Shown: piece by piece, positions 6,149 through 52,233 of the stretch | Layout: each line of letters begins with the position of its first letter | Position numbering within the stretch: the stretch's first letter is position 1 | Assembly: GCA_947085365.1 (NCBI GenBank) | Contig: CAMTWD010000070.1 | Coordinates: 1 to 55,293 of the forward strand | DNA: 55,293 nt | Reading direction: 5' to 3' | From: an uncultured Nitrospirota bacterium | GTDB lineage: Bacteria; Nitrospirota; Thermodesulfovibrionia; Thermodesulfovibrionales; CALJEL01 | Translations under genes and position numbers: made by a program | Notes under the pieces: generated by a model | What the model saw: the letters and a program-made list of their open reading frames with translations, nothing else | What the model was told of the DNA's origin: nothing | The model's database searches: none

Positions 6149-6162
6149 CTGTTACCTCGCCA
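6149..6162 (-). repeat. Dispersed repeat copy (variant ATGGCGAGGTAACAG on the minus strand)
   Basis: Plus strand ctgttacctcgcca. This is the leftmost copy, in the flgL-cas6 intergenic region. Confidence 0.7.
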
Positions 6163-6235
6163 TTTATCGGGATTGGAAACTAAGCAGTGTAAATAGTCCT
6201 CGTCTGAGAAGTGCCGGAGAAGAGGTAAAGTGATC

Positions 6236-7297
6236 TTATTTCAGGAAGTCCAGAAGAGAGCTTGAGAGGACCTTTATTGATGCAATCCTGAGGGCCTCAA
6301 GGCTCGTCTCTGCCTTTTTTATCTCAACAGCAACCTCTGTGAGATCGGCATCCTCTGTCTTTGAAAGATTGTTCTTAAGGGTATTCAGGATGGTCTTTGT
6401 CCTCTCTGTCTCATCCTTGAGGAATGCCCTTCTCGTGGCAAGTTCTGTCTGCCTCTGCAGGACTTGTGTCCGTGCATCGTCTATGATTGGGGCGAGGGCC
6501 TCAATGCGATGCATCGCCCTTGTCTCGCCAATGGATGTGCCATCCAGATCCTCGTATCTCCAGGCATGGCTCAGGAGATTCGCTATCTCCATTATATTTC
6601 TCACTGCAAAGATATCGTGCGCTGGATGAAGGGGGTCACCAATCTCAATAGTGATGGTATTTATCCCTGTAGAGGGGTCATAACTCTGGATATATCTTAC
6701 TGGTGTGCCATCAGATAGATTTGAGGGGATTGATCCCTTGAGAACAAGACTGAAGATCTTTGAGCCAGGTATATTTACTGAAACAGTGGTTGAATTATTA
6801 ACAGGAATCCCCATCTCACCAAGATCACCCTGATAATCATAGGCGAATGTTGAAGGATTGTAGATGAAGGCCTCTCTGTCCGTCCTGAAGCCAGAGAATA
6901 TAAATCTATCTAAGAACCTTGAATTCACAAGTGCGTAAAGGGAGTCCCTCAACAGACCTGCCCGCTGAGAGTTAAATTCCCTTGCCATTGAATCCTGTGG
7001 ATTGATACCTGAGGAGGTGAGTTTTCTGAGCTCCAAAAGGGTATCGGCCACCGAACCTAATACCTTATCAGTAAATTCGAACTGAAGGTCTCCTCTATTA
7101 ATATTTCTGAGATACTGTTCCCTAAGGGATATCTCAATCTTGTAATCAATTGATCTTGAGGTAGATATTACATCATCAGAGGGCTTCAGTATCTTTTTGC
7201 CTGTGGCAAGCTCATCATTTCTTCTGGAAAGCTCCTGAAGGACATCCTGAAGACCCTTCCTGATCTGTTCATATATTATAAGTGAGGATATCCTCAC
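6236..7297 (-). CDS. flgL: Flagellar hook-associated protein 3 (FlgL)
   Basis: MRISSLIIYEQIRKGLQ...LATGKKILKPSDD N-terminus and a flagellin-like C-terminal helix. It follows flgK. Confidence 0.85.
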   Translation of the reverse strand: MRISSLIIYEQIRKGLQDVLQELSRRNDELATGKKILKPSDDVISTSRSIDYKIEISLREQYLRNINRGDLQFEFTDKVLGSVADTLLELRKLTSSGINPQDSMAREFNSQRAGLLRDSLYALVNSRFLDRFIFSGFRTDREAFIYNPSTFAYDYQGDLGEMGIPVNNSTTVSVNIPGSKIFSLVLKGSIPSNLSDGTPVRYIQSYDPSTGINTITIEIGDPLHPAHDIFAVRNIMEIANLLSHAWRYEDLDGTSIGETRAMHRIEALAPIIDDARTQVLQRQTELATRRAFLKDETERTKTILNTLKNNLSKTEDADLTEVAVEIKKAETSLEALRIASIKVLSSSLLDFLK

Positions 7298-7301
7298 GGT
7301 T

Positions 7302-9364: not shown

Positions 9365-9675
9365 ATCTCCCTTATTAATCTTTCGGCAATCTTCACAGGG
9401 TCAATCCTGTATTGACCTGTTTGGATTGCTGACCTCAATTGTTCCACCACCTCAACCCTTATTTCAGGCAGTGACTTCACCTCTTCTAAGAGTCTTGCTG
9501 CCATCCTTGCCTCAGAAGAGATTTCAACCCTGTCTTTTTGAGTCCCTCCAAAGGGGCTTCCCGTAACCTTCTCAGATAGTTCCTTCGGTTTAACACCAGA
9601 AACCCCCTGATTCTGTGTCTGGGCTGTTACTTCGCCAGTAAGTTTGTTCAGGGACCCTCCATCATAAATTTTCAT
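9361..9675 (-). CDS. flgM: Anti-sigma-28 factor FlgM
   Basis: DRVEISSEA motif and C-terminal VEQLRSAIQTGQYRIDPVKIAERLI. Confidence 0.8.
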   Translation of the reverse strand: MKIYDGGSLNKLTGEVTAQTQNQGVSGVKPKELSEKVTGSPFGGTQKDRVEISSEARMAARLLEEVKSLPEIRVEVVEQLRSAIQTGQYRIDPVKIAERLIREI

Positions 9676-9688: not shown

Positions 9689-9785
9689 CTGCTACTTTCC
9701 AACTGTTGGGCTACACAGGGGAAATTGCCTTTCTCCTGTGAGACCTCCAACTGTTACTTCGCCACTAAAACTGTTACTTCGCCAC
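9689..9785 (-). repeat. Repeat cluster in the flgM leader: degenerate copy, imperfect hairpin, then two core copies 20 bp apart
   Basis: A degenerate copy lies at 9689-9703. A hairpin cacagggga...tctcctgtg spans 9714-9740, followed by gagacctcca. ctgttacttcgccac occurs at 9751-9765 and 9771-9785. Confidence 0.85.
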
Positions 9786-13782: not shown

Positions 13783-13797
13783 CTGTTACTTCGCCAC
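13783..13797 (-). repeat. Dispersed repeat copy in the flgF-flgG intergenic spacer
   Basis: Plus strand ctgttacttcgccac. Confidence 0.85.
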
Positions 13798-14524: not shown

Positions 14525-14534
14525 GATCTGATTA

Positions 14535-14646
14535 GTGGCGAAGTAACAGTGAGGGTCAGGGATAGGGGGAGTAATCTTTTGAGATTAAAGGGAATTTTTA
14601 AAGGCCCTGAAAGACCCCTTAAAGACCGTCACTGTTACTTCGCCAC
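14535..14646. repeat. MITE-like 112-bp unit with perfect 18-bp terminal inverted repeats made of the dispersed repeat
   Basis: gtggcgaagtaacagtga at 14535-14552 and tcactgttacttcgccac at 14629-14646 flank about 76 bp. Confidence 0.8.
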
Positions 14647-14655
14647 CAACGGGAT

Positions 14656-16430: not shown

Positions 16431-17247
16431 CCTCCATCAATGCCCTTAATCTCGTAATTGCCTGGCTGTGGATCTGGGATACCCTGCCCTCTGTAAGGCC
16501 GAGAACCTTTGCGATCTCCTTCATGGTGAGTTCATCCCAGTAATAAAGGGAGATAACGAGCCTTTCCCTCTCGGGAAGCCTCTCTATAATCGAGGCAATC
16601 CTCTCTTTCAGCCTCTTTTCTTCATAGAGCAGATCGGGTGTCTTGAAGTTCCTGTCTGGTATGGAATCCTGAAGGGAGAGTTCATCATCATACCTTGAAT
16701 CCGAAAAGTCCTCAAACCTCATTGTAATGGAGGAGGAGAGTTCACTAAGTAATTTGAAATACTCATCAAGAGAGATATTCAGTGCCTCTGCAAGCTCCTC
16801 TGCCTCTGGCATCCTGCCGAGCTTTGCCTTGAGATCTCTATGAGCTCCCCTCAAGGCCGTAAGTTTATTTCTCAATGACCTTGAGAAGGTCATGTTTGAC
16901 CTTATCTCATCGATCATGGCCCCTTTTATCCTCTGCTTCACAAAGGACTCAAGTTTACCGAGCTCCTCTTTATATCTCTCAAGGGACTCAAGCAGTCCGG
17001 TAATTCCTGCACTTATCAGATCATCTATAGTAAGCTGTGGTGGAAGCCTCCAGCTCAATCTCAAGGCAGTGTATTTAATATAGGGGAGGAAGGATCTGAT
17101 TACCTCCTCCACTGTTACCTCGCCACCTCCTGTTGGGGGTACACAGGGGGAAACTTTGTTTCCCCCTGTGAGACCCCCAGCTGTTACTTCGCCACCAGCT
17201 GTGACATCCTCTTTAACAGGATTATCCACAGCTATCCTCCACCCCAT
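16417..17247 (-). CDS. fliA: Flagellar sigma factor FliA (sigma28)
   Basis: Region 2 DDLISAGITGLLESLERYK and region 4 LTMKEIAKVLGLTEGRVSQIHSQA. The first 45 codons consist of repeat and hairpin modules. An alternative GTG start lies at 17112, with GAGG supplied by the repeat. Confidence 0.85.
   Translation of the reverse strand: MGWRIAVDNPVKEDVTAGGEVTAGGLTGGNKVSPCVPPTGGGEVTVEEVIRSFLPYIKYTALRLSWRLPPQLTIDDLISAGITGLLESLERYKEELGKLESFVKQRIKGAMIDEIRSNMTFSRSLRNKLTALRGAHRDLKAKLGRMPEAEELAEALNISLDEYFKLLSELSSSITMRFEDFSDSRYDDELSLQDSIPDRNFKTPDLLYEEKRLKERIASIIERLPERERLVISLYYWDELTMKEIAKVLGLTEGRVSQIHSQAITRLRALMEDEDV
17112..17195 (-). repeat. Composite repeat: core variant, 13-bp-stem GC hairpin, GAGACCCCCA, core copy
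   Basis: ctgttacctcgccac at 17112-17126. Hairpin cacagggggaaac-ttt-gtttccccctgtg at 17142-17170. ctgttacttcgccac at 17181-17195. Confidence 0.85.
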
Positions 17248-23076: not shown

Positions 23077-23352
23077 TCAGTGGCGAAGTAATAGTCCTGG
23101 AATCTTCTCCATAATCCATATCGTAAAGGCCATAAGCTCCCTCGCGATCCATGGCAACATAAAGAAGAGGCATAGAAAGACAGCTATTATCTTTGGTACA
23201 AAGACAAGGGTGAATTCCTGTATCTGTGTGACAGCCTGAAAGAGGCTCACAATAAGTCCAACGAGGAGGCTCACCAAAAGCACAGGCCCTGCCACAAAGA
23301 GTAGGGCTTTTAGAGACTCACCCGCTATATCCCTCAGTATATCTATCGTCAT
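23077..23352 (-). CDS. fliQ: Flagellar export protein FliQ
   Basis: The Met at 23352 (MTIDILRD) overlaps the fliP stop. QAVTQIQEFTLVFVPKIIAVF motif. The last codons (GLLLRH-stop) are encoded by a repeat copy. Confidence 0.9.
   Translation of the reverse strand: MTIDILRDIAGESLKALLFVAGPVLLVSLLVGLIVSLFQAVTQIQEFTLVFVPKIIAVFLCLFFMLPWIARELMAFTIWIMEKIPGLLLRH
23080..23094 (+). repeat. Dispersed repeat copy forming the 3' end of fliQ
   Basis: Plus strand gtggcgaagtaatag. Confidence 0.8.
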
Positions 23353-30235: not shown

Positions 30236-31629
30236 CTTTGCCTCCTGTCAAATAAAAGAATAAGGTCCTGGACACTATCGGAGAGGTCTCGCCTCTCCTC
30301 CATTCCCTGTCTTATATAGACCCTAAGGGATTCCATCATCTCTATGGCATAATCAATCTTGGGATTTGAGCCAGGTTTATAGGCACCAAGATTTATCATG
30401 TCCTCATACTTTTTATATGTAGCAAGGGTCTCTACAAATCTCATGGCATACTCTCTGTGTGTTTCGCTTACTATATCAGGCATAACCCTGCTTATACTCT
30501 GAAGGACATCTACGGCAGGATAAAGGCCTTCTGCTGCGAGTTCCCTCGAAAGGATGATATGTCCATCAAGGATTGCCCTCGATGCATCAGCAATAGGATC
30601 GGCCATATCATCACCCTCGACAAGGACTGTATATATTCCTGTAATGGAGCCCCTTTCAAAGGCCCCTGCCCTTTCAAGAAGTCTCGGAAGGAGTGTAAAT
30701 ACCGATGGGGTGTATCCCTTTGATGTGGGCGGTTCTCCAGTGGCAAGCCCTATCTCCCTCTGTGCCTGGGCAACCCTTGTAAGGGAATCCATAAGGAGAA
30801 GGACATCATGACCTTCATCCCTGAAATATTCAGCGATGGCTGTAGCGGTAAAGGCAGCCCTCACCTTCTTCAAGGGTGGATCCTGGGCAGTGGATACAAC
30901 CACAACTGACTTTTCGAGCCCCTTCTCACCAAGATCCTTTTCTATAAAATCCTTTACCTCCCTTGCCCTCTCACCTATAAGGGCTATCACTGTAACAGTT
31001 GCCTCAGTAAATCGTGTTATCATTCCCATAAGGACGCTCTTTCCCACACCCGAACCTGCCATGATACCAATCCTCTGGCCTTTCCCACATGTGAGAAGAC
31101 CGTTGATTACCCTTATACCGAGATCAAGGGGTTCTGTTATCCTCTTTCTGTTAAGGGGGCTCACAGTAAAACCTGAAAGGGGATAGTCCTTTCCATAGAT
31201 GGGCCCTTTTCCGTCTATAGGGATGCCCTTGGCATCCACGATCCTCCCTATAAGGGATGGAGAGACCTTCACAGAGGTCCTCTTCCCTTCATTAATCACC
31301 CTGGCACCAGGCCTGATCTCCGTCATATCTCCTGTAGCCATAAGGAGGGCCCTTCCATCTTTGAACCCCACCACCTCTGCGTCAATGCCTACAGGATCAT
31401 CAGAGATAATCCTGCAGAACTCCCCAATGACAGGCCTAATACCAGAGACCTTTATCAAAAGACCTGTTATCTCTTCAACCCTTCCATAGACCTTTAACGA
31501 GTCAGCCTCTTTTATCTTTGAGATCAAGTTCGAGATCACCTTCTCTACTTTTACCTCGGGGATACACAGGGGGGAATATTCATTCCCCCCTGTGAGACCC
31601 CCGACTTTTACCTCGCCCTCTGCTGTCAT
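30232..31629 (-). CDS. fliI: Flagellum-specific ATPase FliI
   Basis: Walker A GSGVGKS and Walker B VLLLMDSLTR. The first ~29 codons are hairpin and repeat modules. An alternative GTG start lies near 31542. Confidence 0.95.
   Translation of the reverse strand: MTAEGEVKVGGLTGGNEYSPLCIPEVKVEKVISNLISKIKEADSLKVYGRVEEITGLLIKVSGIRPVIGEFCRIISDDPVGIDAEVVGFKDGRALLMATGDMTEIRPGARVINEGKRTSVKVSPSLIGRIVDAKGIPIDGKGPIYGKDYPLSGFTVSPLNRKRITEPLDLGIRVINGLLTCGKGQRIGIMAGSGVGKSVLMGMITRFTEATVTVIALIGERAREVKDFIEKDLGEKGLEKSVVVVSTAQDPPLKKVRAAFTATAIAEYFRDEGHDVLLLMDSLTRVAQAQREIGLATGEPPTSKGYTPSVFTLLPRLLERAGAFERGSITGIYTVLVEGDDMADPIADASRAILDGHIILSRELAAEGLYPAVDVLQSISRVMPDIVSETHREYAMRFVETLATYKKYEDMINLGAYKPGSNPKIDYAIEMMESLRVYIRQGMEERRDLSDSVQDLILLFDRRQR
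31565..31619 (-). repeat. Perfect 13-bp-stem hairpin plus GAGACCCCC and a degenerate core copy
   Basis: cacaggggggaat-attc-attcccccctgtg at 31565-31594, then agacccccgacttttacctcgccct. Confidence 0.8.
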
Positions 31630-32252: not shown

Positions 32253-33213
32253 GCCTCCTTGCCACAGAGGCTATGTTCTTCTGGGCCTTCTGTATATCCG
32301 AGACCCTCACAGGGCCTTTTGCCTCCATCTCATCTTTAAGTATCTGGACTGCCCTCTGGGACATATTTTTGAATATCTTCTCCTTGAGGGCCTCTGTTGC
32401 TGTCTTGAGGGCAATTGCAAGGTCATCAGTGGAGACCTCCTTGAGGATAAGCTGTATAGACCTGTCATCAAGGGTTATGAAATCCTCAAAGGTAAACATA
32501 TTCTCACGGATCTCATCAGCCAGGTCTATATCCTGTTCTTCTATCTTTTGAAAGACTATCTCCTCAGTGACCTTATCGCAATAGTTCAGTATATCTGCTA
32601 AGGCCTTTGTGCCTTTTAATTCCCTTATCCTTCCCGCCCTTAGTGGCGAAGTAACAGTTGAAATCCTTATCCTTCCCTTCAATATCTCTCTGAGCTCTTC
32701 TATACCCTCCTCAGGGATCCTCTCCATTACTGCTATCCTTGAGGCAACCTCTCCTTTTAATTTATCAGGAAAGAGGTTTAAGACCTTTGCAGCCTTTTCA
32801 GGCTCCATAAGAGAAAGGGCCATGGCAATTATCTGGGGATGTTCATTGCGGAGCACTGCTGCTAAGGCCTTTGGATCGGTTCCTTCAAAAAGCTCAAAGG
32901 GACTCTCCTCGGAGATTATCTCCATAACCTCCCGTGCCCTCTCCTCTCCCAGTCCTCTCGGAAGGAGATTCTTTATAAAATCAGGCCCTGAAACAGGTAT
33001 CTCATCTCTTTCAATGATCCCTGCTGCCTCCTTTATTACTTCCTCAAGGTCTTTCTTTGTCACCCTCCTGAACCTCTTCATCTGAAGGGTAAGGGTTTTT
33101 ACTGTAACAGGATCCAGTGACTTCAGGACCTCAGAGGCCACATCCTCTCCCAGGGCAATCAAAAAGAGGGCTGCCTTCTCATATCCCTTAAGCCCCATCT
33201 CACCTCTCCTCAA
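32197..33213 (-). CDS. fliG: Rotor/switch protein FliG
   Basis: GYEKAALFLIALGEDVASEVLK...IRENMFTFEDFITLDDRSIQ...MSQRA. The probable start is the Met at 33198, which has a GAGGAGAGGTGAG SD. Confidence 0.95.
   Translation of the reverse strand: MRRGEMGLKGYEKAALFLIALGEDVASEVLKSLDPVTVKTLTLQMKRFRRVTKKDLEEVIKEAAGIIERDEIPVSGPDFIKNLLPRGLGEERAREVMEIISEESPFELFEGTDPKALAAVLRNEHPQIIAMALSLMEPEKAAKVLNLFPDKLKGEVASRIAVMERIPEEGIEELREILKGRIRISTVTSPLRAGRIRELKGTKALADILNYCDKVTEEIVFQKIEEQDIDLADEIRENMFTFEDFITLDDRSIQLILKEVSTDDLAIALKTATEALKEKIFKNMSQRAVQILKDEMEAKGPVRVSDIQKAQKNIASVARRLEKEGRIIISKGGEGVVV
32643..32657 (+). repeat. Repeat copy inside fliG
   Basis: gtggcgaagtaacag; encodes TVTSPL within ...RIRISTVTSPLRAGRIRELKG... 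Confidence 0.85.
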
Positions 33214-34729: not shown

Positions 34730-34784
34730 CTGTTACCTCGCCACTGGTACTGTTACATCGCCACCAAGACTGTTACCTCGCCAC
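34730..34784 (-). repeat. Three tandem repeat copies with 20-bp period, filling the fliE-fliF intergenic spacer
   Basis: ctgttacctcgccac at 34730, ctgttacatcgccac at 34750 and ctgttacctcgccac at 34770. Confidence 0.9.
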
Positions 34785-34789
34785 TGAAT

Positions 34790-35095
34790 TCAGACCTGCA
34801 TCCTCTGAATCTCTTCATAGGCACTTATAAGCCTGTTACGAACCTCCACCATAAGCTGGAAGGAAAGCTCTGCCTTCTGCATGGCTATAACAGCCTGAGT
34901 AATATCTCCTCCTCGTGCAAGCTCCTTCACAGCCTTCTCAGCATCAGACTGTATCTGCTCAAGTTTTCCTATGGCTTCCCTGAGAAGCAGATCAAAGGAT
35001 CCTTCTGAAACTGCAGAAGGCCTCTGGAGAACTGTTACTTCGCCACTAAGATTGGTATTGATAGAGCTTAGATTATTTATCCTTACCTCAGACAT
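34790..35095 (-). CDS. fliE: FliE
   Basis: C-terminal AVIAMQKAELSFQLMVEVRNRLISAYEEIQRMQV. Confidence 0.85.
   Translation of the reverse strand: MSEVRINNLSSINTNLSGEVTVLQRPSAVSEGSFDLLLREAIGKLEQIQSDAEKAVKELARGGDITQAVIAMQKAELSFQLMVEVRNRLISAYEEIQRMQV
35032..35046 (-). repeat. Repeat copy inside the fliE 5' region
   Basis: ctgttacttcgccac; encodes SGEVTV. Confidence 0.85.
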
Positions 35096-37297: not shown

Positions 37298-38508
37298 GAG
37301 GTCATCTCCTTTAGTGGCGAAGTAACAGTTGGTGGCGAGGTAACAGTTACTCCCTGGGAGACCTCATCACTGAGAAGGGATGGGATAGAGAGGATAAAGG
37401 TGGTTCCCTCACCAGGTCTGCTCTCCACATTTATAAATCCACCGTGAGCCTGGACTATCCTTGCTGTAATGGTAAGACCGAGACCTGTGCCAGTAGGTTT
37501 TGTTGTAAAGAATGGATCAAATATCCTATCAATAATCTCAGGTTCAATACCTGTACCGGTATCCTTGATGATAAAGGAGGTATATCCACCATCCTCTTTG
37601 AGATCAACGCTTATATTCCCACCCTCAGGCATTGCCTGGATAGCATTTATAAAGAGGTTCAGGAGGGCCTGCCTCAGGAGATCACCGTCAGCCATGAGAA
37701 GAGGATCTTTATCGGTCACATCTATCTGGACATTGCTGGATCTCAAGATTGGGTCGATGATCTCCAGGACGGACCTAAGCAGGTCTCTGAAGGTGATGGG
37801 CTTAAGGTTTACCCTCTCAGGTCTTGCAAAGATTAGGATATTCGTTAAGATATTATTTAGTGTTCTTATCCCTGATGTGATACCCCTTGAAAGATCCTTC
37901 CCTTTTTCGCTCAGTATCTCATGCTCCAGCATAGTGGCAAAAAGTTCGATACTGCAAAGGGGATTCCTTATCTCGTGGACTATCCTTGCGGCCATCTCAC
38001 CCATGGCTATCAACCTCTGATTCCTTTCATGTTGCATCTCCAGTTCTCTGAGCCTTGTAATATCTTTTATGATGATGACCTCTCCGATGAGATCTCCATC
38101 GCTCACAACAGGTGCACTGGAAAGGATAATGTTCCGCCTCTTCCCATTTGAATAAAGGACAGCCTCTGGACCTTCCCGGTTTATAGAGAAATCCATCTCC
38201 GAAAGACCTCTGCCAAGGACCTCCTCAGCCCTCACACCAAAGAGTTCTTCAGCGGAATGATTAATCATTATTATCCTCTCCTGAGGATCTATCACGACCA
38301 TCGCCTCTTCCATGCTCTGGATAATGGCATTAAGAAAGTCCCTATTTCGCTCCACCTCCTTCAGGGCAGACTCAAGGGCAGAGTTTTTCTTCTGGACCTC
38401 CTCTGTAAGAGACCTTATCTTCTCCTGAAGAGATGCATAATAGGACTCAAGACTCTTTGATGCCTTTGTAAAGTTATCAAAGGCCTCATTGAGAAGCTTC
38501 AGATCCAT
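37294..38508 (-). CDS. Sensor histidine kinase (PAS-HisKA-HATPase; FleS/FlrB/FlgS-like)
   Basis: H-box HEIRNPL, N/G boxes ([21 protein letters not shown]). The C-terminal tail TVTSPPTVTSPL is encoded by two repeat copies. Confidence 0.9.
   Translation of the reverse strand: MDLKLLNEAFDNFTKASKSLESYYASLQEKIRSLTEEVQKKNSALESALKEVERNRDFLNAIIQSMEEAMVVIDPQERIIMINHSAEELFGVRAEEVLGRGLSEMDFSINREGPEAVLYSNGKRRNIILSSAPVVSDGDLIGEVIIIKDITRLRELEMQHERNQRLIAMGEMAARIVHEIRNPLCSIELFATMLEHEILSEKGKDLSRGITSGIRTLNNILTNILIFARPERVNLKPITFRDLLRSVLEIIDPILRSSNVQIDVTDKDPLLMADGDLLRQALLNLFINAIQAMPEGGNISVDLKEDGGYTSFIIKDTGTGIEPEIIDRIFDPFFTTKPTGTGLGLTITARIVQAHGGFINVESRPGEGTTFILSIPSLLSDEVSQGVTVTSPPTVTSPLKEMTS
37314..37346 (+). 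repeat. Two repeat copies 18 bp apart forming the C-terminal tail of the kinase
   Basis: gtggcgaagtaacag at 37314 and gtggcgaggtaacag at 37332. Confidence 0.85.
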
Positions 38509-40534
38509 AGAGATCCTCCTTAAGCCTCTTCAATAATAGGGTCTCCTCAGCAAGGAGGCCAGTAAGGTTCGTAGAAAAAGGTGCTGTCTTATTCCCTGAA
38601 TCCTCTCCTGTGATTACAGAAACCCTATAGATTGTCCAGTCCATCTCCTGGGGTGTAAGTTCTCTCTTCTTCTCATCGGAGAGGGCAATCCTGTAATATT
38701 TCAAGGCGTCATCCCTTTTCCCTCTTTCGTAAAGAAGGTCTGCAAGCCTCACATAGGAGGATGCATCAGCACCATATTTATCTATGAGCCTCTTTAAAAG
38801 TTCTATGACCCTTCCTTCCTTTGTATAAAGGGAGATGGTCATGAGGGTGGGGATATCCTCTTGCTTCAATTCCTTTATCTTAATAAGGTGATCAAGTCCC
38901 TTCTTATAATCACCCCTTTTTACCAATGTCATGGCATATGTCCTCTGCTCGCGGTCTGTTAAGGGTATGATGTTACTGATCATGGTAAAGGCCTTCTCAA
39001 CATCACCAATGGAGAGATAAAACTGGGCCATCAAAAAAGAGGCTCTCCTCTTTTCTTCTCCTTTAGTCTTTCTGAAAAGCCATGAGGAGAGTTCAAAAAA
39101 TTCCTTTTTAGATTCCCCCATGAGTTCTGCAACCCTGAAGAGAAAATCTGTATTTGAGGGGTCAAGGAATAATCTTGAAAAGTCCCTCCATATAGTGATG
39201 AATTCCTCTCTATTACTTCTGCCTGCCTCAAGGAGCGTATCCTTCAGAAACCTCATCGCCTCCTGAGAAGGGTCTCTTTTTAATATCAGTGGCAGGAGGG
39301 TACGGGCAGACTCCCTAAGCTTATTCCCTTTTCTGTAAATCTCTGCCTGCAATAGAAGTGCCCTCTCGTAATCCTCTCCGTAGGGATATAGGGATCTCAG
39401 TGCAATGAGCCTCTTCATTGCCTCATCAGATCTGCCAAGTCTTATGAGTGATTCGGCACTCATAAGAAGTGCCTTCTGCCTTAGAGATGGCCCAACTGCA
39501 GGAACTGTTACCTCGCCACTGGCAACTGTTACCTCGCCACTAAGTGTTGAGTGAAGGATCTGTTCAAAGTATTTCAGGGCCTCCTGAGGTCTGTTCCTTT
39601 TTAATTCCAGTATCCCGAGATCCAGATAGGCCCTGTATCTCAGGGGAGCCTCTTTTACTGATGTAAGATACCTTATTGCCTCTTCATATCGACCCAGGGC
39701 CAGCCTATTCTCCCCTATATAAAGCCTTGTCTCTGGAGAGGTCTTTATAAATCCCGTATCCCTGAGGAGCAGATCAATATAAAGCTTATTTGCCTCTGAG
39801 ATCCTTCCCATGAGATGAAGGGTATTTGCCTTTCCAAACTGCACTGCCATGGAATCCCCTGCCATCTCATAATATTTGAGGGCCTCCTGATAAAGACCCT
39901 GTGCCCTGAGGGATTCAGCAATACCATAGAAGGCCTCTCTTTTATACTGAGATTCGGGAAAGAGCCTCAACAAAAGCCTGTAGGCCACAGTTGCCTCAGG
40001 ATAAAACCTCATTCGGGCATAAAGATCTGCCCTTTTAAAATGCGCCTCTTCCTTTATCCGTCCAGTTCCATAGGAGACTGCCCTTTGAAGATGCTCAAAG
40101 GCCTCATAATACCTGTTAAGGCCTATTAGAACCTTGGCATAAAGGAGATGGTATAGACCCCTCTCTTCTGCAATGGGCCTTACAGATTGAAGAAGGCTGA
40201 GGCCCTTCCTTAATTCACCAGATTTTATAAGCTCGGAAACCTTAGTAAGATCCTCACTTTGTGGCGAACTACCACCACCCTTCGTGGCAAAGGAAAGGTG
40301 CTGAAGTAAAGAAAAGAGAAAGAACAGAATAAAGAGGAGGGTCTTCCACCCTCTGCACTGAGTGACGAAGTAACGCTTCAAGCCTCCTGAGAGCCTCATG
40401 CCAGAGAAAAAGCAATAAATATGCCAGAATAGAACTACTTGATTAGTAAAGGTTTTTCTGGAAGGTGTCACTTTAATGACATGGGTGGCAAAGTAACAGT
40501 AGGGGGTCTCACAGGGGGGAACGACGGGTCGCAC
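38486..40534 (-). CDS. TPR-repeat protein
   Basis: Many TPR-like AxxYY/ALKYY repeats. The probable start is the Met at 40399 (MRLSGG...), followed by a TM segment; the upstream extension is repeat-derived. Confidence 0.75.
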   Translation of the reverse strand: MRPVVPPCETPYCYFATHVIKVTPSRKTFTNQVVLFWHIYCFFSGMRLSGGLKRYFVTQCRGWKTLLFILFFLFSLLQHLSFATKGGGSSPQSEDLTKVSELIKSGELRKGLSLLQSVRPIAEERGLYHLLYAKVLIGLNRYYEAFEHLQRAVSYGTGRIKEEAHFKRADLYARMRFYPEATVAYRLLLRLFPESQYKREAFYGIAESLRAQGLYQEALKYYEMAGDSMAVQFGKANTLHLMGRISEANKLYIDLLLRDTGFIKTSPETRLYIGENRLALGRYEEAIRYLTSVKEAPLRYRAYLDLGILELKRNRPQEALKYFEQILHSTLSGEVTVASGEVTVPAVGPSLRQKALLMSAESLIRLGRSDEAMKRLIALRSLYPYGEDYERALLLQAEIYRKGNKLRESARTLLPLILKRDPSQEAMRFLKDTLLEAGRSNREEFITIWRDFSRLFLDPSNTDFLFRVAELMGESKKEFFELSSWLFRKTKGEEKRRASFLMAQFYLSIGDVEKAFTMISNIIPLTDREQRTYAMTLVKRGDYKKGLDHLIKIKELKQEDIPTLMTISLYTKEGRVIELLKRLIDKYGADASSYVRLADLLYERGKRDDALKYYRIALSDEKKRELTPQEMDWTIYRVSVITGEDSGNKTAPFSTNLTGLLAEETLLLKRLKEDLYGSEASQ
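39505..39540 (-). repeat. Two repeat copies 21 bp apart inside the TPR gene
   Basis: ctgttacctcgccac at 39505 and 39526; encode SGEVTVASGEVTV. Confidence 0.85.
40362..40376 (+). repeat. Degenerate repeat copy
   Basis: gtgacgaagtaacgc. Confidence 0.5.
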
Positions 40535-40560
40535 AGGGGGAAACTTTGTTTCCCCCTGTG
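40485..40560. repeat. Composite repeat: core variant, inverted GAGACCCCC half, 13-bp-stem hairpin
   Basis: gtggcaaagtaacag at 40485-40499, then agggggtctcacagggggg. Hairpin cacagggggaaac-ttt-gtttccccctgtg at 40532-40560, just after the stop of the upstream regulator gene. Confidence 0.85.
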
Positions 40561-40577
40561 TACCCCCAACAGTGGGG

Positions 40578-42125
40578 TTAACTGATACCCAATCTCTTCA
40601 TCTTCTCAATGAGGGTGGTCCTGTTTATGCCAAGAAGTGCCGCTGCCTTTGACCTCACACCACCTGCCTTCCGGAGGGCATTGAGTATGAGGTTCCTCTC
40701 TGTTTCCTCAAGAACCTTCGCCAGATCGATCCCTCCTTCAGGTATATCCTCCAGGGTTGGTGGCGAAGTAACAGTGCTCAGTGGCGAAGTAACAGTAGGA
40801 AGTCCCTTATCCACCCCTTCTCTCTTCAGGAATCTCTCAGGAAGGTCATCGGGCATCACAACCTCATGAGAGACCAATATCGTCAATCTCTCCACGAGGT
40901 TTTCCAGCTCCCTGACATTTCCTGGCCAGTCATATCTCATTAGTACAGCCAGTGCCTCCTCTGAAAATCTGAGAGGCTTACCCTTTCTCTTCCTCTGAAA
41001 CCTTTTCAAAAAATGATCTAAAAGGAGTGGAATGTCCTCCCTCCTCTCTCTTAGTGGAGGAAGATGGATAGGGATAACATTCAACCTCCAGTAAAGGTCT
41101 TCCCTGAACTTACCCTCTCTTACAGCCTCTTCAAGATTCCGGTTTGTTGCTGCAATTATCCTCACATCCACCTTTATGGTCTTCACACCACCAACCCTCT
41201 CGAATTCCCTCTCCTGTAAAACCCTCAGGAGTTTCACCTGAAGGGATGGATCGAGTTCTCCTATCTCATCAAGAAAGAGTGTCCCCTTATTTGCAAGCTC
41301 AAACCTCCCTATCCTTGTATTAACAGCTCCTGTAAAGGCACCCCTTTCGTGTCCAAAGAGCTCTGACTCGAGGAGGTCCCTCGGGATGGCTGCACAATTT
41401 ATCGGCACAAAGGGGCCTTCAGCCCTTGAGCTGTTGTAGTGTATGGTCTTTGCCACAAGCTCCTTGCCCGTCCCACTCTCACCAGTGATGAGGATCGTGC
41501 TGTCTGTATCGGCTATCTTCTCAATCAGATCGTAAATCCTCTGCATCTTAATGGAATCTCCCACGAGGACTGAAAAGTGATATCTCTGTCTCAACTGCCC
41601 TTTCAGGGCAATATTCTCCCTCTCAAGTCGTGAAACCTCGAGGGCCTTCTCGATAATCAATTGGAGTTCCTCAAGGTTAAATGGTTTAGTAATATAATCA
41701 AAGGCGCCGAGTTTCATAGAAAGCACGGCATTCTGTATCGTTCCATAGGCTGTCATAATGATAACAGGCACCTTTATCCTTCTTGAATTAAGTTCCTTCA
41801 ATATCTCAATACCTCCAACCCTTGGAATCACGAGGTCTATGATGGCAAGGTCAAATCTCTCAGATATCAATAATTCAAGACCTGATTCACCAGAATCAGA
41901 AAGGGTAACCTCGTAACCCTTTTCACTCAGAAAGGTTTTCAACACATCCAGCACAGTGGGGTCATCATCGATAACAAGTATCTTTGCCATATAACTATTG
42001 TAGTGCCCTTTATTCCTTAAGTCAATATTTTGACAACTCTTAATTAAAGTTTTACCCTTGCCATCCGAATTAAAAATAGGAGCCTTCTGTAGTGGAGGTG
42101 TTGGTATGACCATATCTCCCTTCAA
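40578..42125 (-). CDS. sigma54-dependent transcriptional activator with receiver domain (NtrC family; FleQ/FlrA-like candidate)
   Basis: Receiver (KILVIDDD), AAA+ ([14 protein letters not shown]) and Fis HTH. The probable start is the Met at 41990 ([10 protein letters not shown]). The linker carries [13 protein letters not shown] from two repeat copies. Confidence 0.9.
40760..40795 (+). repeat. Two repeat copies 21 bp apart in the AAA+-to-HTH linker of the activator
   Basis: gtggcgaagtaacag at 40760 and 40781. Confidence 0.9.
42045..42071 (+). promoter_or_regulatory. Weak sigma28-like promoter candidate (TAAA-N15-TCCGAATT)
   Basis: TAAA and the 15-nt spacing are exact; the -10 matches only 4 of 8 positions. 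Confidence 0.2.
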
Positions 42126-42384
42126 GATTTATGAGCTGATGCACCTCTACGACCGCATCTCTAAAGTAAGGAATCCCGGCACCGTTACCTCGCCACTAAG
42201 GGAAGGGCCAGTTGGTGGCGAAGTAACAGTTCCTAGTGGCGAAGTACCAGTTGAGAAGACCATCTTCTGGGGTGGCACCGAGATGGAGGAACCAAAGGAT
42301 GTGGTCCACATCTCCTCAGAAGCAAAAAGGAGACAGATTATTGAGGAGACAAAAAAGGAGGTCCTCGAAAAGATAAGAGAGTGA
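42106..42384 (+). CDS. Small protein with a FlgM-like DVVHISSEAK motif
   Basis: ATG at 42106 with a GGAGGTG SD 5 nt upstream. The C-terminal DVVHISSEAKRRQIIEE resembles DRVEISSEARMAARL of flgM. The middle is made of three repeat copies. Confidence 0.4.
   Translation: MTISPFKIYELMHLYDRISKVRNPGTVTSPLREGPVGGEVTVPSGEVPVEKTIFWGGTEMEEPKDVVHISSEAKRRQIIEETKKEVLEKIRE
42182..42250. repeat. Three repeat copies (one inverted, then two direct 21 bp apart)
   Basis: ccgttacctcgccac at 42182, gtggcgaagtaacag at 42215 and gtggcgaagtaccag at 42236. Confidence 0.85.
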
Positions 42385-42958: not shown

Positions 42959-42974
42959 GAAGGCCAGAATCCTC

Positions 42975-44408: not shown

Positions 44409-45199
44409 AGGAACTAAAAAAAGGAGAAAGGATACTCCTGAGCCCAGCAAAATGTGGCGAGGTAACGATTGGGAAGATCAGGTGGAGTGGCAATATCCTA
44501 TCAGTTGATGGAGATGGGGTGACCGTGGAGCTTGACACTGATATAAAGGAGATAAGGCCTGGAGATGGGGTGATACTTATAATTGAAAGGCCTGACTACT
44601 ATAATGAATTCCATGCCACTGTTATGGAGAAAAAAAAGAGGGTATGGAGGCTGAAATGGCACTGGCCTGAAAGGAGGGAATTCTTCCGGATAGACGATCT
44701 GATAGGAATCTCTGCAAGAAAGATATGTCCTGAGATGAAGAGGGCATCACGAATAATTCATACCAGCAGTGGCGAAGTAACAGTTGGTGGCGAGGTAAGA
44801 CTCTCTGAATTTGATATCCCCGATCCATCCATCAGCCCAGGTCTTTGGAAGATTCTCAATGAGATCAATAGAAAGCTCAACATCCTCCTTGAAAGGATGA
44901 ATCAGCAAAAGGAGGATGCACCAAGTCTTGAATACCAGAAGGTGAACATCAGTGCGGGAGGGATAAGGTTTATAAGTTCAGAAAAGGTGGAGAGAGGGGA
45001 TATCATGGAGGTGAGACTCCTTCTCCCTACATGCCCTCCATTAGATATCCTCACCTATGGAGAGGTGGTAAGGATTAAGGAGACTGACCATGGTTATGAG
45101 GTGGCTCTGAGCTTCAAGGAGATAGAGGAGGAGGTGAAGGAGGCAATTCTCAGATACACCATCCAGAAACAGAGAGAACAACTGAGAAAACAGAGATGA
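44405..45199 (+). CDS. PilZ-domain c-di-GMP receptor (YcgR-like position upstream of motA)
   Basis: RREFFR (RxxxR) and NISAGG (D/NxSxxG) motifs, separated by about 80 aa that include a repeat-encoded SGEVTVGGEV. Confidence 0.75.
   Translation: MKELKKGERILLSPAKCGEVTIGKIRWSGNILSVDGDGVTVELDTDIKEIRPGDGVILIIERPDYYNEFHATVMEKKKRVWRLKWHWPERREFFRIDDLIGISARKICPEMKRASRIIHTSSGEVTVGGEVRLSEFDIPDPSISPGLWKILNEINRKLNILLERMNQQKEDAPSLEYQKVNISAGGIRFISSEKVERGDIMEVRLLLPTCPPLDILTYGEVVRIKETDHGYEVALSFKEIEEEVKEAILRYTIQKQREQLRKQR
44454..44468 (+). repeat. Degenerate repeat copy in the PilZ gene 5' region
   Basis: gtggcgaggtaacga. Confidence 0.5.
44769..44801 (+). repeat. Two repeat copies 18 bp apart inside the PilZ gene
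   Basis: gtggcgaagtaacag at 44769 and gtggcgaggtaagac at 44787. Confidence 0.8.
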
Positions 45200-48142: not shown

Positions 48143-48144
48143 AG

Positions 48145-49782: not shown

Positions 49783-50853
49783 CTAAACCTTCTCTTTCAG
49801 AAATTCAAGTATCTCCAATTCCCTCTTTCTTATATACTGAACAATCAGCTCCTCATCCTGGGGATGGATAAAGAACTCAGCACCGTATCGAAAACCTGAG
49901 GCCTCGGGCCTTTTGAATCTGATGATTCCGCAGGTCATGATAAACTTCAGACTGTCAGGGAGCTGGATACCAAAGATATATACCTCCTGTTGCCGAAGAT
50001 CCCTTGGGGTAAAAAAGCCAATACCCCTCTGACTGATGTCCACAACCTCAAGGTTGAGGGTTGCCTCTCCAGGCAGTAGGAGATAGAGTCTCACAGGTCT
50101 CTTTATATTCGGGACAACCCTCACATGCCTTCGCCTCTCGATAAAAAGCCTCTGGGGTAATCGAACCTCTACCTCGTGTTCACACACACTAACTACATTC
50201 ATAATACCCTCATAATTGAGGTCCTTGTAAGGCAGAACAGCCTTGATGGCTTTACCCTCCTTCATGCCCTTTATAAGTAGAAGGGGGTTAAATTGATAAA
50301 GGATGGGTTTATCCTTCCTGAACCTTATCCTGCAGACACCCCTTACAGTAACAGGCCTTCCATATTCTTCTATCTCAAAGGAGATGATTATGGGTATCTC
50401 CTTCTTAAGAATATAGGAAAGGATATCCCTTATCTTCTCCGGATCCTCCTCAGGTCTGTCGGATATGGTCTCTCCAAATGTTACCTGTGGTGATATCTTT
50501 ATATCTGGGATTGCCCTTAAAAGGCTTAAACGAAAGATAAAGTTTATGAGCATACCCATCTTTATGATATCATCCTCTAAGAGGCTGAAACAGAGGGCAT
50601 TAAGGGGATAGAGGAACTCATCAGGTACCCGTGTAGTATTGTCTGCTATAAATATAACAGGGCCTGTAACACCCTTTGACCTCAATTGTGAAAGGAATCT
50701 CTTGTAATCCTCATCAAGTGGGATGAGTGCCCCATCACTTATACCAGCCTCTCGAAGCATCACCTCCTTTACCTCTGAGGATGCCTCAATCCTCAATCGG
50801 AATTCAGGCTCTGCAAGGATGTCCTTCAGGTCATGGGTCGTCCAGATGAGCAT
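49783..50853 (-). CDS. PilZ-domain protein with a large N-terminal domain
   Basis: C-terminal RRRHVR ... DISQRGIGF at canonical PilZ spacing. Confidence 0.75.
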   Translation of the reverse strand: MLIWTTHDLKDILAEPEFRLRIEASSEVKEVMLREAGISDGALIPLDEDYKRFLSQLRSKGVTGPVIFIADNTTRVPDEFLYPLNALCFSLLEDDIIKMGMLINFIFRLSLLRAIPDIKISPQVTFGETISDRPEEDPEKIRDILSYILKKEIPIIISFEIEEYGRPVTVRGVCRIRFRKDKPILYQFNPLLLIKGMKEGKAIKAVLPYKDLNYEGIMNVVSVCEHEVEVRLPQRLFIERRRHVRVVPNIKRPVRLYLLLPGEATLNLEVVDISQRGIGFFTPRDLRQQEVYIFGIQLPDSLKFIMTCGIIRFKRPEASGFRYGAEFFIHPQDEELIVQYIRKRELEILEFLKEKV

Positions 50854-50855
50854 GA

Positions 50856-52082
50856 CTAAACTATAAGAGAAAGGCCAGTGTATTCATCCGCATCGGGATC
50901 AACGGTATTTCCATAGGCATCCCTTCCGTAGAATCGGAAGACAAGGTGGGAAGGATCTATCGTGCCGTCTCCGCTCTGATTCTGTCTCAGGGTGAAATAT
51001 ACTGTGGCACTTCTGGCTGTAGAGTCGTATATAACCATCTTTGGCACTGGATAGGGCCTCACCTCTGTTTTAGGTAAAGGCAGACCCCAGTTATAGGGAC
51101 CGCCATGCCTCATATCCATTGACCATGATATAGACCAGTTGAATATATCTTCCACCGAGCCCCTGTCCATCTCTTTATCAAAATAGACAATCAATCTGAA
51201 GTCCTTCGAACTCCCTGGTGCTGAAAGGGCTGGGTCAAGGGAACTCAGAGGTGTTCCTGGTCCCTGTTTCATATCAAAGGCAAAGAGGGTATTTACAGAC
51301 CTTATCCTCGGCCTTCTTTTTCTGTAGATATAAGACCACAGCTCAAGGGCAAGGGCACTGTCAAGGCCTTCAAGGATCTTAACCTGTTCATCAGCCTTCT
51401 CAAATTCACCCACATCAGTATAAACAATACCCAGATCATAATAGGCATAGGCAAAATCCCTCTTTATCTCTATTGCCCTTTTAAAAGCCTTTATTGCCTC
51501 ACCATAGATCCCCTGCTTTGACCAAAGCAGACCTAAGGAATAGTGGGCACCGTAATTGTCAGGCTCATACCTCAATATCCTCTGGAAGGTCTCTTCAGCC
51601 TCTTTATATCTCTGAAGCTGTATATATGCCTGGCCAAGGGGATAGAGGTTGTCGGTGGATGGGTTTATCCTAACTGCCTTGAGATAATACTCCATTGCCT
51701 CATTGTATCTTTGTTGATCATACAGGATGTTGCCAATCTTTAGATATAGGAAATCAACTGTTATCTCTCCACCAAGTTTTGCGAAGAATAATCTTATTGC
51801 CTCCTCATAGACCTTAATTGCCTCTTCAGGCCTCTTCATCTTCAGATATGCCTGTGCCATGAAGTCATAGGCCTTCAGGCTATTTTCTGAATAGGGGTCA
51901 AAGGCTATTGCCCTCCTGAATTCCCTTACAGCATCGGAGTAAATACCCTTCTGGTAGAGTTCAATGCCCCTTGACAGGGCAGTTCCTGAAAGACCTGAAT
52001 AGGAACGGAGGGTATTGCTGAGAAGAGAAAATAGCTTATCCTCCCTTAAGGGCGAGGTAAGGGTCACTGGCAATGGATTCAT
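50856..52082 (-). CDS. TPR-repeat protein with a C-terminal Ig-like/unknown domain
   Basis: TPR repeats (AIKVYEEAI, AMEYYLKAV, AEETFQRIL, AIKAFKRAI). The N-terminal VTLTSPL comes from a degenerate repeat copy. Confidence 0.75.
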   Translation of the reverse strand: MNPLPVTLTSPLREDKLFSLLSNTLRSYSGLSGTALSRGIELYQKGIYSDAVREFRRAIAFDPYSENSLKAYDFMAQAYLKMKRPEEAIKVYEEAIRLFFAKLGGEITVDFLYLKIGNILYDQQRYNEAMEYYLKAVRINPSTDNLYPLGQAYIQLQRYKEAEETFQRILRYEPDNYGAHYSLGLLWSKQGIYGEAIKAFKRAIEIKRDFAYAYYDLGIVYTDVGEFEKADEQVKILEGLDSALALELWSYIYRKRRPRIRSVNTLFAFDMKQGPGTPLSSLDPALSAPGSSKDFRLIVYFDKEMDRGSVEDIFNWSISWSMDMRHGGPYNWGLPLPKTEVRPYPVPKMVIYDSTARSATVYFTLRQNQSGDGTIDPSHLVFRFYGRDAYGNTVDPDADEYTGLSLIV

Positions 52083-52233
52083 AATTTTTAATTCGGTTCT
52101 CTTTAATTAAAAATTTAATCATCTTCTCTTGTTTGGCGGCAAGATAACAGTGCGAGGTAACACTTTTGACTGAAATCAGCGTCAATTTTTTGACCAAAAG
52201 AGACCATTACAGGCCCTTCAGCCCATTGCAGAC

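Follow-up and report, generated by a model that had tools for sequence, protein, structure and literature searches.

A dispersed 21-nt repeat in a flagellar gene cluster of Thermodesulfovibrionales: a probable family of ultra-small insertion elements

A repeat of about 21 nt is dispersed through the flagellar gene cluster of an uncultured member of the Thermodesulfovibrionales (Nitrospirota). It is best explained, with a probability of about 0.7, as a family of ultra-small non-autonomous insertion elements that are copied in trans and filtered by selection, and whose selfish nature we infer. The window, that is, the whole stretch of DNA that was analysed, is one contig of this genome (55,293 nt). 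Judged by sequence comparison with related loci, the copies are insertions whose sites differ between lineages.

The unit consists of a 15-base core, GTGGCGARGTAACAG, and short flanks, TTR-GTGGCGARGTAACAG-TT(G). A pattern search of both strands of the window with GTGGCGAAGTAACAG, allowing up to 2 mismatches, returns 41 matches (shuffle control: mean 0.02, maximum 2), and GTGGCGARGTAACAG at up to 3 mismatches returns 54, against 1.06 expected. Perfect 15-mers, 21 of the A-variant and 8 of the G-variant, make up 29 of the 47 copies recognised at up to 2 mismatches, a proportion that suggests recent activity or homogenisation, and the 21-mer ACTTAGTGGCGAAGTAACAGT has 7 perfect copies. Copies range from 6149 to 52393 on both strands, as singles, tandems with periods of 18, 20 and 21 nt, and inverted pairs. 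The pattern search found none in the AT-rich cas block (1-6148) or in the window downstream of 52393, and at the far edge of the colonised region (51758..52393) the copies, at 51758 and within 52136-52393 (52136-52165 and 52379), are all decayed. The preliminary description of this DNA had counted about 50 copies, which agrees with the number at 3 mismatches and somewhat exceeds that at 2 (41-47). Its coordinates for single copies, tandems and inverted pairs are all correct, and it rightly held that the density exceeds chance and that the cas block and the DNA past 52.7 kb are free of copies. Its figure of about one copy per kb stands as an average (41-54 copies in ~46 kb) but conceals a very uneven spread: the interval 25-30 kb holds 16 of the 47 copies, mostly in FliK and its flanking spacers, and none of the 47 lies in 17.3-23.0, 23.1-27.8 or 45-51.7 kb. 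Fixed arrangements recur as well, since an identical 42-nt dimer is found at two unrelated sites (29154 and 29757) and an 18-nt A-then-G heterodimer at three (28451, 37314 and 44769). Relative to the local genes, the sense strand is favoured 28:13 by copy and 21:9 by cluster.

The insertion status of the copies is shown by comparison with relatives. Two syntenic flagellar loci, L023 and L025, hold the same genes in the same order at ~70% amino-acid identity. A motif search of both loci found no copy in their flagellar genes or in the corresponding spacers, and the one near match, with 1 mismatch, is inside a gene for ribonucleotide reductase on the margin of L023. The preliminary description had proposed that orthologous flagellar genes be aligned and each insertion scored as present or absent; scored in this way, the copies are absent from the flagellar genes of L023 and L025 and reciprocal with those of a third lineage, the DAISHO genome (locus L008). 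In these alignments the in-gene copies compared are clean in-frame insertions of 7 or ~14 residues, and in FliE, FliI, the MgtE_N-like protein, the histidine kinase, the TPR protein and sigma-54 activator 1 they coincide exactly with the copies. More than 10 in-ORF copies are confirmed as coding insertions, which measure 18-24 nt in the DNA, with boundaries uncertain by a few bases because the nearest orthologues are ~30% divergent. L008 carries the element at different sites: its HD-GYP gene has a 24-nt insertion and that of the window has no copy, while the PilZ gene has copies in the window and none in L008, so that presence and absence are reciprocal among the window, L023/L025 and L008. 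The lack of copies in L023 and L025, together with the other sites in L008, shows that these are insertions and not motifs built by substitution. Other Thermodesulfovibrionales assemblies carry the element, with matching flank preferences, in unrelated genes and spacers; the relatives that bear the 15-mer have 27 copies in ~130 kb, and many of their intergenic copies lie just 5' of a ribosome-binding site. The element is therefore a property of the lineage and not of flagellar genes, to which the title of the preliminary description had tied it.

About 26 of 41 copies (~60%) lie within ORFs, in both orientations, and a Pfam scan places none of these inside a domain envelope: all are in linkers or termini. 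All are read in stop-free frames (SGEVTV, WRSNS, TVTSPL or CYFATK), intragenic lengths are multiples of three, and every host ORF stays open. A selection filter could produce this distribution, by which copies would be retained in spacers and at gene ends and, within genes, only where their length is a multiple of three, no stop is introduced and they sit in a linker or disordered tail. Such a filter would also explain the accumulation of copies in FliK and in the small number of true spacers of an otherwise tightly packed cluster.

In FliG, a single antisense 21-mer (32639..32659, + strand) reads TVTSPLR in the linker between FliG_M and FliG_C. Set against 13 homologues, these are exactly 7 additional residues, and the DNA behind them is the consensus 21-mer; a 13-nt repeat flanks the copy, the only flanking repeat found by the flank search. 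At N-termini, single copies read TGEVTA in FlgM (9624..9638, -), upstream of the FlgM Pfam domain (residues 48-101), and SGEVTV in FliE (35032..35046, -), ahead of the FliE domain, the latter an insertion relative to the L023 orthologue. FliQ ends, at its 3' side, in one antisense copy (23080..23094, +), which provides the final residues LLLRH and the stop codon. FliK, the hook-length ruler, has 12 copies in its N-terminal three-fifths (28359..29081), all upstream of the Flg_hook domain; among them are tandems with periods of 18 and 21 nt and an inverted pair (29037/29067) whose two copies make an 18-bp hairpin. The MgtE_N-like protein has gained 7-8 residues relative to its orthologues in the C-terminal tail (29310..29324, -; SVEVTA) and ~14 at the N-terminus, where a perfect antisense 42-nt dimer (29757..29798, +) reads CYFATKYCYFATK. 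Dimers are also found in the histidine kinase, within its C-terminal tail (37314..37346, +; antisense A-then-G heterodimer of 18-nt period, TVTSPPTVTSPL, ~13 residues inserted), between TPR units of the TPR protein (39505..39540, -; G-G dimer of 21-nt period, SGEVTVASGEVTV) and in the sigma-54 activator, within the linker that joins the AAA+ lid to HTH_8 (40760..40795, +; antisense, 21-nt period, read as 13 residues), the last two being insertions relative to both orthologues. The PilZ-domain protein contains a degenerate copy (44454..44468, +; CGEVTI), which inserts 6 residues when compared with the orthologue in L008, and, upstream of the PilZ domain, an A-then-G heterodimer of 18-nt period (44769..44801, +; SGEVTVGGEV).

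Spacers show the same range of arrangements. Single copies lie between cas6 and a flagellin-like gene (6149..6163, -; ATGGCGAGGTAACAG) and between two rod genes (13783..13797, -), where the copy abuts the ribosome-binding site and ATG of the next gene. Three tandem copies of period 20 (34730..34784, -) constitute the entire 60-nt FliE-FliF spacer, at a junction where the two genes overlap by 1 nt in both L023 and L025. Inverted arrangements occupy three spacers. At 14532..14649, copies at 14535 (+) and 14632 (-) form 26-nt arms, 92% complementary and separated by 66 nt, and a heptamer-like remnant, GTGAGGGTCAGGGATAGGGGGAG (14550-14575), adjoins the first. Between the MgtE_N-like gene and FliK (29154..29267), a perfect 42-nt dimer (+) is paired with one copy in inverted orientation (-), and their 22-nt arms show 100% complementarity. 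The divergent spacer at 42182..42250 has three copies, one (-) toward the activator gene and two (+) toward the response-regulator gene, with 42182 and 42215 as the inverted pair.

The unit itself is structureless: the 21-mer folds with -0.2 kcal/mol (z-score +0.37) and the dimer with a z-score of -0.65, so that only the inverted pairs and a second repeat form folds. This second repeat, HP43, is a 43-nt hairpin (-22 to -24 kcal/mol, z-score -4.5 to -7.7) nested beside some 15-mer copies at 4-5 sites, each time with a 15-mer before it and AACAG or a second 15-mer after it. At the 5' end of FliA or just upstream, preceding sigma-70 region 2, the composite at 17112..17195 (-) consists of an A-variant 15-mer, HP43 (17135-17177), AACAG and a G-variant 15-mer, the order of variants being that of the A-then-G heterodimers. 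Just after the FliI start codon (31558..31619, -), HP43 has degenerate 15-mer pieces, GAGGTAAAAGT, on either side and forms an in-frame insertion of ~21 residues (FliI has 465 aa, against 437 and 444 in the relatives). The spacer that separates activator 1 from the TPR gene (40485..40567, +) contains, in order, a 15-mer, HP43 plus an extra half arm, and AACAG, and between the FlgJ-like gene and FlgM (9720..9785, -) two tandem copies of period 20 precede a degenerate HP43.

These composites raise the possibility, which we consider rather unlikely, that the true mobile unit is the ~85-nt composite of 15-mer, HP43 and 15-mer, of REP or MITE type, and that the 15- and 21-mers are leftovers, comparable to solo LTRs. 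The direct repeats on either side would slip or recombine, the hairpin would drop out, and A-then-G dimers and solo copies would remain; an AACAG-to-AACAG deletion at 17112-17195 does yield the exact 18-nt heterodimer of the three other sites. The constant surroundings of HP43, the in-frame insertion of a composite in FliI and the strength of the hairpin, the kind of substrate that HUH enzymes use, all agree with this reading. However, solo copies and dimers exceed composites by ~10 to 1, and HP43 was not seen in the ~130 kb of relatives that contain the 27 15-mers, which weakens the idea of the composite as progenitor. The same pattern is also predicted if HP43 is a second element that inserts at AACAG in the 15-mer and duplicates 5-10 nt. 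The composite reading would in any case refine, and not exclude, the preferred one, a family of insertion elements copied in trans.

It is less probable still that the repeat is a functional cis-element (an RNA- or DNA-binding site, operon punctuation or an ops-like sense signal) spread by selection, with insertion as its means of delivery. The 28:13 sense bias, the very strong conservation of the core, the divergent-spacer copies at 42182-42250, each facing its downstream gene, and the placement of several intergenic copies, both here and in relatives, directly 5' of a ribosome-binding site and ATG are consistent with such a role. Against it, the corresponding spacers of the syntenic relatives have no motif, about 60% of the copies lie in ORFs in both orientations, at structurally permissive but functionally arbitrary places, and the motif lacks palindromic symmetry and has no counterpart among Rfam families; with periods of 18, 20 and 21 nt, the tandems keep no fixed helical phase. 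The iterated protein-binding site that the preliminary description had listed as an option is not supported, given the same absence from L023 and L025. A DNA uptake sequence, enriched by preferential uptake and recombination in competent cells, is very improbable, although the repeat resembles one in its core length, its local density of ~1 per kb on both strands, its occasional inverted pairs and its permissive in-gene frames, and in that no copies lie in the AT-rich cas and restriction blocks, which are probably foreign. All copies tested against orthologues are 18-24-nt insertions absent from the orthologous loci, and not in-place substitutions of unchanged length, which argues against this class; identical 33- and 42-nt dimers recur at several sites, and the window has no competence genes. 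To our knowledge, tight tandem arrays are not a feature of the uptake sequences of Neisseria or Pasteurellaceae, and we know of nothing on competence in this group. An assembly, adapter or chimera artefact, finally, can practically be dismissed. The window is a metagenome-assembled contig, and two of its three differences from an independent assembly of the organism fall in repeats; but host ORFs all stay open with in-gene lengths in multiples of three, the element occurs in independent assemblies from other samples, and we know of no sequencing adapter that it matches.

Among known systems, the closest analogue is the class of small dispersed repeats of cyanobacteria, SDR1-8 (Elhai et al. 2008, Genome Res 18:1484; cited in PMC3116915, PMC5861425 and PMC2884548). 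Like the present family (21 nt in the window, 24 nt in L008), these repeats reportedly have many dispersed copies of 21-27 nt, recognised as insertions against otherwise homologous sequence, and encode no enzyme. They are also reported to be nested with other small repeats and embedded in tandem heptamer arrays; here the 21-mer is nested with HP43 at 4-5 sites, and TTAGGGN heptamer arrays occupy the equivalent spacers of L025, but the window has only one remnant (14550-14575). The host and the structure differ: SDRs are reportedly restricted to Nostocaceae and SDR4-6 are said to have a common predicted fold, whereas the present unit has no predicted secondary structure, no sequence similarity to SDRs and a host in the Nitrospirota, so that it is an analogue and not a member of that family. 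A HIP1-like fixed target was not found at the copies examined here, and a large share of them lie in frame inside conserved protein genes, which is not known to have been emphasised for SDRs.

Rickettsia palindromic elements, ~100-150 bp in length, are likewise tolerated in frame at permissive sites of conserved, even essential, proteins, to which they add a peptide segment. In-frame insertions of this kind are found here in FliG, FliI, FliE, the sigma-54 activator, the histidine kinase, the TPR protein, the MgtE_N-like protein and the PilZ protein, and this part of the analogy drawn in the preliminary description is supported; the palindromic part is not, as the unit is unstructured, 5-7 times shorter (21 nt, 7 residues per unit) and often tandem. 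The REP/BOX/Correia-type class it had also named is not supported. REP/REPIN elements, mobilised by RAYT (PMC3116915), are likewise very short, highly abundant and non-coding, the inverted pairs 29037/29067 and 42182/42215 fold as hairpins, and HP43 looks like a REP. REPs, however, are extragenic imperfect palindromes, while the 21-mer is unfolded and more than half of its copies are in ORFs, and the Pfam scan of ~30 ORFs of this contig revealed no RAYT gene. The unit has no hairpin, no inverted termini and no coding capacity, and the flank search of copies found neither a consistent target-site duplication, of fixed length or otherwise, nor defined ends; it is therefore neither a REP nor a MITE. 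Uptake sequences share core length, local density, use of both strands and permissive in-gene frames with it, and differ in insertion origin, tight tandems, fixed dimers and absence at orthologous positions. Mycobacterial interspersed repetitive units (MIRUs), of 46-101 bp and known only from spacers, also place tandem units between operon genes, as the three units filling the FliE-FliF spacer do, but the present element is 18-21 nt long and also intragenic and inverted.

New copies would arise by copy-and-paste with machinery supplied in trans, the units inserted being monomers or preformed 33-nt or 42-nt dimers in either orientation. The same Pfam scan found no transposase, no reverse transcriptase and no Y1_Tnp match, and the lack of a consistent target-site duplication and of defined ends leaves the insertion chemistry unconstrained. 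The leading guess makes the 15-mer a travelling companion or a target of HP43, which an HUH/RAYT-type enzyme would handle as single-stranded DNA; most copies would then be hairpin-less derivatives. A route through RNA or a reverse transcriptase, of the kind reportedly proposed for SDRs, is equally open. The sense-strand bias and the position of relatives' copies 5' of ribosome-binding sites are not required of a purely selfish element; on these grounds some copies may have been exapted, or the mechanism may be strand-specific.

At 21 bases, the element is among the smallest insertion-type repeats known, and it is apparently the first of its kind in this bacterial group. More tentatively, and at somewhat less than even odds, it may represent a mobile ~21-nt 'nano-element' of Nitrospirota that is independent of SDRs, structureless, inserted as monomers or fixed dimers and routinely placed in frame within core flagellar coding sequences. 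If it is moved with HP43 by an HUH or reverse-transcriptase route, mobile DNA of less than 25 nt would be a general bacterial phenomenon, and the 21-mer and HP43 would be a tractable pair for tracing the copying enzyme.

Copies of the 15-mer GTGGCGAAGTAACAG are found in the flagellar cluster far more often than chance allows. At up to two mismatches it occurs 41 times in the window, against 0.02 expected from dinucleotide-preserving shuffles, and with the A and G variants of the core merged as R and up to three mismatches allowed, 54 copies are found against 1.06 expected, so the dispersed family recognized by eye in the preliminary description is real and highly non-random. Perfect copies number 21 for the A-variant, eight for the G-variant and seven for the 21-mer of that description, and every single copy, tandem and inverted pair listed there was recovered at its coordinates. 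Of the tandems, four have a period of 18 nt, three of 20 nt and six of 21 nt. The ends of the contig, described as repeat-free, are indeed so, as a pattern search at up to three mismatches found no copy in 1-6148 or beyond 52393, the final copies (51758, 52136-52165 and 52379) being decayed. A density of about one copy per kb, on the other hand, did not hold: the spread is patchy, with 16 of the 47 copies at up to two mismatches within 25-30 kb and long stretches devoid of any. No Rfam family reached its gathering threshold in the window.

The window is an entire contig of 55,293 nt. Its gene map, obtained by Pfam scans of the window ORFs, begins with a type I cas block that contains cas6 (1-6014, 32-35% GC), for which no CRISPR array was found in the window. 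The flagellar cluster runs on the minus strand from 42125 down to 6236 and comprises, in order of transcription, two σ54 activators, a TPR protein, a histidine kinase, FliE, FliF, FliG, FliI, an MgtE_N-like protein, FliK, FliQ, FliR, FliA, a rod protein, an FlgJ-like protein, FlgM and a flagellin-like protein. At positions matching window ORFs outside the Pfam scans, the syntenic flagellar loci of two relatives, L023 and L025, encode FlgB, FlgC, FliH, FliJ, FlgD, FlgE, FliL, FliM, FliN, FliO, FliP and FlhB. A plus-strand block (42386-49781) harbors a response regulator, an HD-GYP protein, a PilZ protein, two MotAB pairs and a histidine kinase, and is followed on the minus strand by a PilZ and a TPR protein. 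The MotA/MotB stator pairs (45196-46640 and 48145-49781) have a PAS histidine kinase between them, and the two PilZ-domain proteins and the HD-GYP response regulator in their vicinity suggest control of the motor by c-di-GMP. The low-GC tail carries a truncated glycosyltransferase adjoining an NgoFVII-like PLD restriction enzyme with an AAA domain. Both repeat-free ends (1-6014 and 52700-55293, 32-39% GC) probably represent DNA that was acquired recently.

Counting bases position by position in 41 copies of the window and 27 of relatives has revealed the same conservation pattern in both sets: TTR, followed by GTGGCGARGTAACAG and TT(G), plus a less conserved C at -6. The unit has no fold of its own (-0.2 kcal/mol, z-score +0.37), no inverted termini were found in it, and a search of the flanks of the copies gave no recurrent repeat that could represent a target-site duplication. 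Read in the sense direction, the 21-mer has one open frame, LSGEVTV, and the core alone is also open in a second, WRSNS; antisense readings give TVTSPL or CYFATK, or a protein end, LLLRH-stop. The peptides actually present in ORFs are exactly those of the open frames.

Comparison with orthologues demonstrates that the copies are insertions. FliG has 333 residues in the window and 326-327 in its homologues, the closest of which carry the names Thermodesulfovibrionales or Nitrospirota; the window product itself (P0001) is recorded in both NCBI and a Logan assembly. An alignment of 14 FliG sequences contains a single gap of exactly seven residues, TVTSPLR, in the linker between FliG_M and FliG_C, and the DNA encoding them is the consensus 21-mer. 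Within 32620-32680, the insertion lies between 13-nt direct repeats, CCTTATCCTTCCC on the plus strand, read as GRIR...GRIR, which are absent from the orthologues and have no counterpart at any other insertion site. L023 and L025 share the gene order of the window, their proteins being about 70% identical, and their flagellar genes are devoid of the element; in gene-by-gene alignment with them, every copy compared is a clean insertion. These add about 14 residues to the AAA+ lid/HTH linker of a σ54 activator, about 14 to the TPR protein, about 13 to the histidine kinase tail, 6-7 to the N-terminus of FliE, and 7-8 and about 14, respectively, to the C- and N-termini of the MgtE_N-like protein. 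In both relatives fliE and fliF show a 1-nt overlap, whereas in the window a 60-nt spacer consisting of three units and nothing else lies between them. FliK, the hook-length ruler (27925-29124), contains 12 copies, which account for about 20% of its length; its total of 399 residues falls, despite these copies, between the 421 and 321 of the relatives. No copy within an ORF lies inside a Pfam domain envelope.

Other genomes were searched by exact scans with a 19-mer, which was detected in six contigs of DAISHO01, another Thermodesulfovibrionales genome, and in several contigs of the metagenomes Ga0272445 and Ga0272449. Copies in these relatives are less dense than in the window and reside in spacers and in unrelated ORFs, where they are read in the same peptide frames. 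Therefore, although the repeat does occupy the flagellar cluster, as first noticed, it is not tied to flagellar genes, and the family is a property of the lineage rather than of the cluster. Single 19-mer matches in Photobacterium, Thermoanaerobacterales and a few other contigs (L001, L006/L009, L011, L013, L015/L021) were rejected as members and treated as chance, since they are solitary, occur in genomes of different GC content and are about as numerous as expected for the size of the databases. The DAISHO locus L008 shares synteny and about 75% nucleotide identity with window 43.1-50.8 kb. Its HD-GYP gene has a 24-nt insertion containing the element that the window gene lacks, and the window PilZ gene has copies that the L008 gene lacks, so that scoring of orthologues, as had been proposed, yields a reciprocal presence and absence, the signature of an inserting element whose sites vary among lineages.

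Some 15-mers are directly followed by GGGGTCTCACAG, the left arm of a 43-nt hairpin, HP43, with the structure GGGGTCTCACAGGGGGAAAC-N3/4-GTTTCCCCCTGTGTACCCCC, located at 17135-17177, 31558-31601 and 40503-40567 and, in decayed form, at about 9720-9747. Its free energies are -22 to -24 kcal/mol, with z-scores of -4.5 to -7.7. HP43 always adjoins a 15-mer, which precedes each hairpin together with three further bases; on its other side stands AACAG or, in FliI, GAGGTAAAAGT or, at FliA, a second 15-mer, and HP43 is therefore bracketed by a direct repeat of the 15-mer 3' end. The entire composite adds about 21 residues in frame to FliI, directly past the conserved start codon. HP43 may be a separate element that specifically targets the 15-mer and generates a short duplication on insertion. 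On another reading, the succession of 15-mer, HP43 and 15-mer may be the full element, from which dimers and solitary copies would derive by lacking the hairpin; the A-then-G order around HP43 at FliA is also that of three 18-nt heterodimers (28451/28433, 37314/37332 and 44769/44787), which favors this composite, but no HP43 was found in about 130 kb of the relatives' loci that do carry 15-mers. In an independent Logan assembly of the same organism (ERR3478709), 3 of 4965 positions differ from the window (31562, 34250 and 34757), and two of the three fall inside repeats, one in HP43 and one in the middle unit between FliE and FliF, both shifts being toward the family consensus. Gene conversion may be the cause, or else a collapse of the assembly consensus or other repeat-driven consensus error.

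The element was compared with several known systems, some of which had been put forward as analogues. DNA uptake sequences are argued against because these motifs arise in place and the copies here are insertions, and a REP or REPIN identity fails as well, since the unit forms no hairpin and is not confined to extragenic DNA. MITEs possess inverted termini and a target duplication, both of which the unit lacks. The Rickettsia palindromic element shares the in-frame behavior, but differs in size and structure. A σ54 promoter was rejected because neither the spacing nor the bases suit -24/-12 elements, Chi and KOPS because they are 8-mers with replication polarity, and a CRISPR repeat because the unit is too short and there is no array. 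Nor is this a protein-level repeat motif, given that nucleotide identity is maintained at synonymous positions, four reading frames are used and non-coding copies exist. The closest analogues are the small dispersed repeats (SDR, 21-27 nt) of cyanobacteria, which Elhai et al. (2008) reportedly regarded as perhaps the smallest mobile elements and which are said to lie often within heptamer arrays. The relative L025, which lacks the 15-mer, has tandem heptamers TTAGGGN/CCCTAAN in partly inverted arrays in its flagellar-cluster spacers (930-1001, 8107-8126, 13837-13899 and 17161-17205 of that locus), resembling the cyanobacterial STRR heptamers; two of these spacers are the counterparts of window spacers with 15-mer clusters, and a heptamer remnant is found in the window at 14550-14575. 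Cyanobacterial SDRs are cited in passages of PMC3116915, PMC5861425 and PMC2884548. The window element has no sequence or structural similarity to them and its host belongs to another phylum; it therefore resembles SDRs in its mode of working but is not a member of that family.

The proposed model is that of a selfish, non-autonomous element that would be copied by an activity acting in trans, the inserted copies then being filtered by purifying selection. A 42-nt perfect dimer recurs at 29154 and 29757, and a 33-nt heterodimer likewise at unrelated sites, suggesting that multi-unit modules are pasted as units. The nested HP43 hairpin points to a single-strand, HUH/RAYT-type route as a candidate for the copying, and for SDRs an RNA intermediate has reportedly been proposed. 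The scans of viral contigs gave no sign of a phage vector, with one probably fortuitous match to an 18-mer and none to HP43. The surviving copies are confined to spacers and gene ends, to linkers and to disordered regions, always in stop-free frames, and selection of this kind would account for the saturation of FliK, a tolerant ruler, and of the few true spacers, as well as for the lack of copies in tightly packed or domain-dense stretches. The orientation of the copies sits less easily with this model: the sense strand of the local genes is favored (28:13 by copy, 21:9 by cluster), each copy in the divergent spacer faces the gene downstream of it, and many intergenic copies of the relatives lie just 5' of the ribosome-binding site. 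This bias could stem from a strand-specific mechanism or from exaptation of some copies. The direction of transcription is inseparable in it from that of replication, because near 42 kb, at the divergent gene boundary (about 41000-43000), the GC skew changes sign and the cumulative skew reaches its minimum.

The family is best described as a very small mobile repeat, a new variant in a phylum for which literature searches found no such report: none for an interspersed repeat in Thermodesulfovibrio and, in full text, none containing the 15-mer. To our knowledge, demonstrably inserted repeats this small are documented essentially only in heterocystous cyanobacteria, where the mechanism has been unsolved since 2008. 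A second, unrelated lineage with such insertions, together with the heptamer arrays of a relative, suggests a general process and not a cyanobacterial oddity, and the 15-mer, its fixed dimers and its nested hairpin partner provide comparative material for finding the enzyme. In practice, such repeats can lengthen ORF calls, confuse short-read assembly and act as strain markers. The in-frame colonization of core flagellar proteins is unusually frequent, and the insertions amount to a natural linker-scanning of the flagellar machine: they part the fliE gene from fliF, and they show where 7-21 additional residues are tolerated, namely in the linker between the middle and C-terminal domains of FliG, the N-termini of FliI and FliE, the AAA+ lid/HTH linker of NtrC-type activators and the ruler region of FliK.
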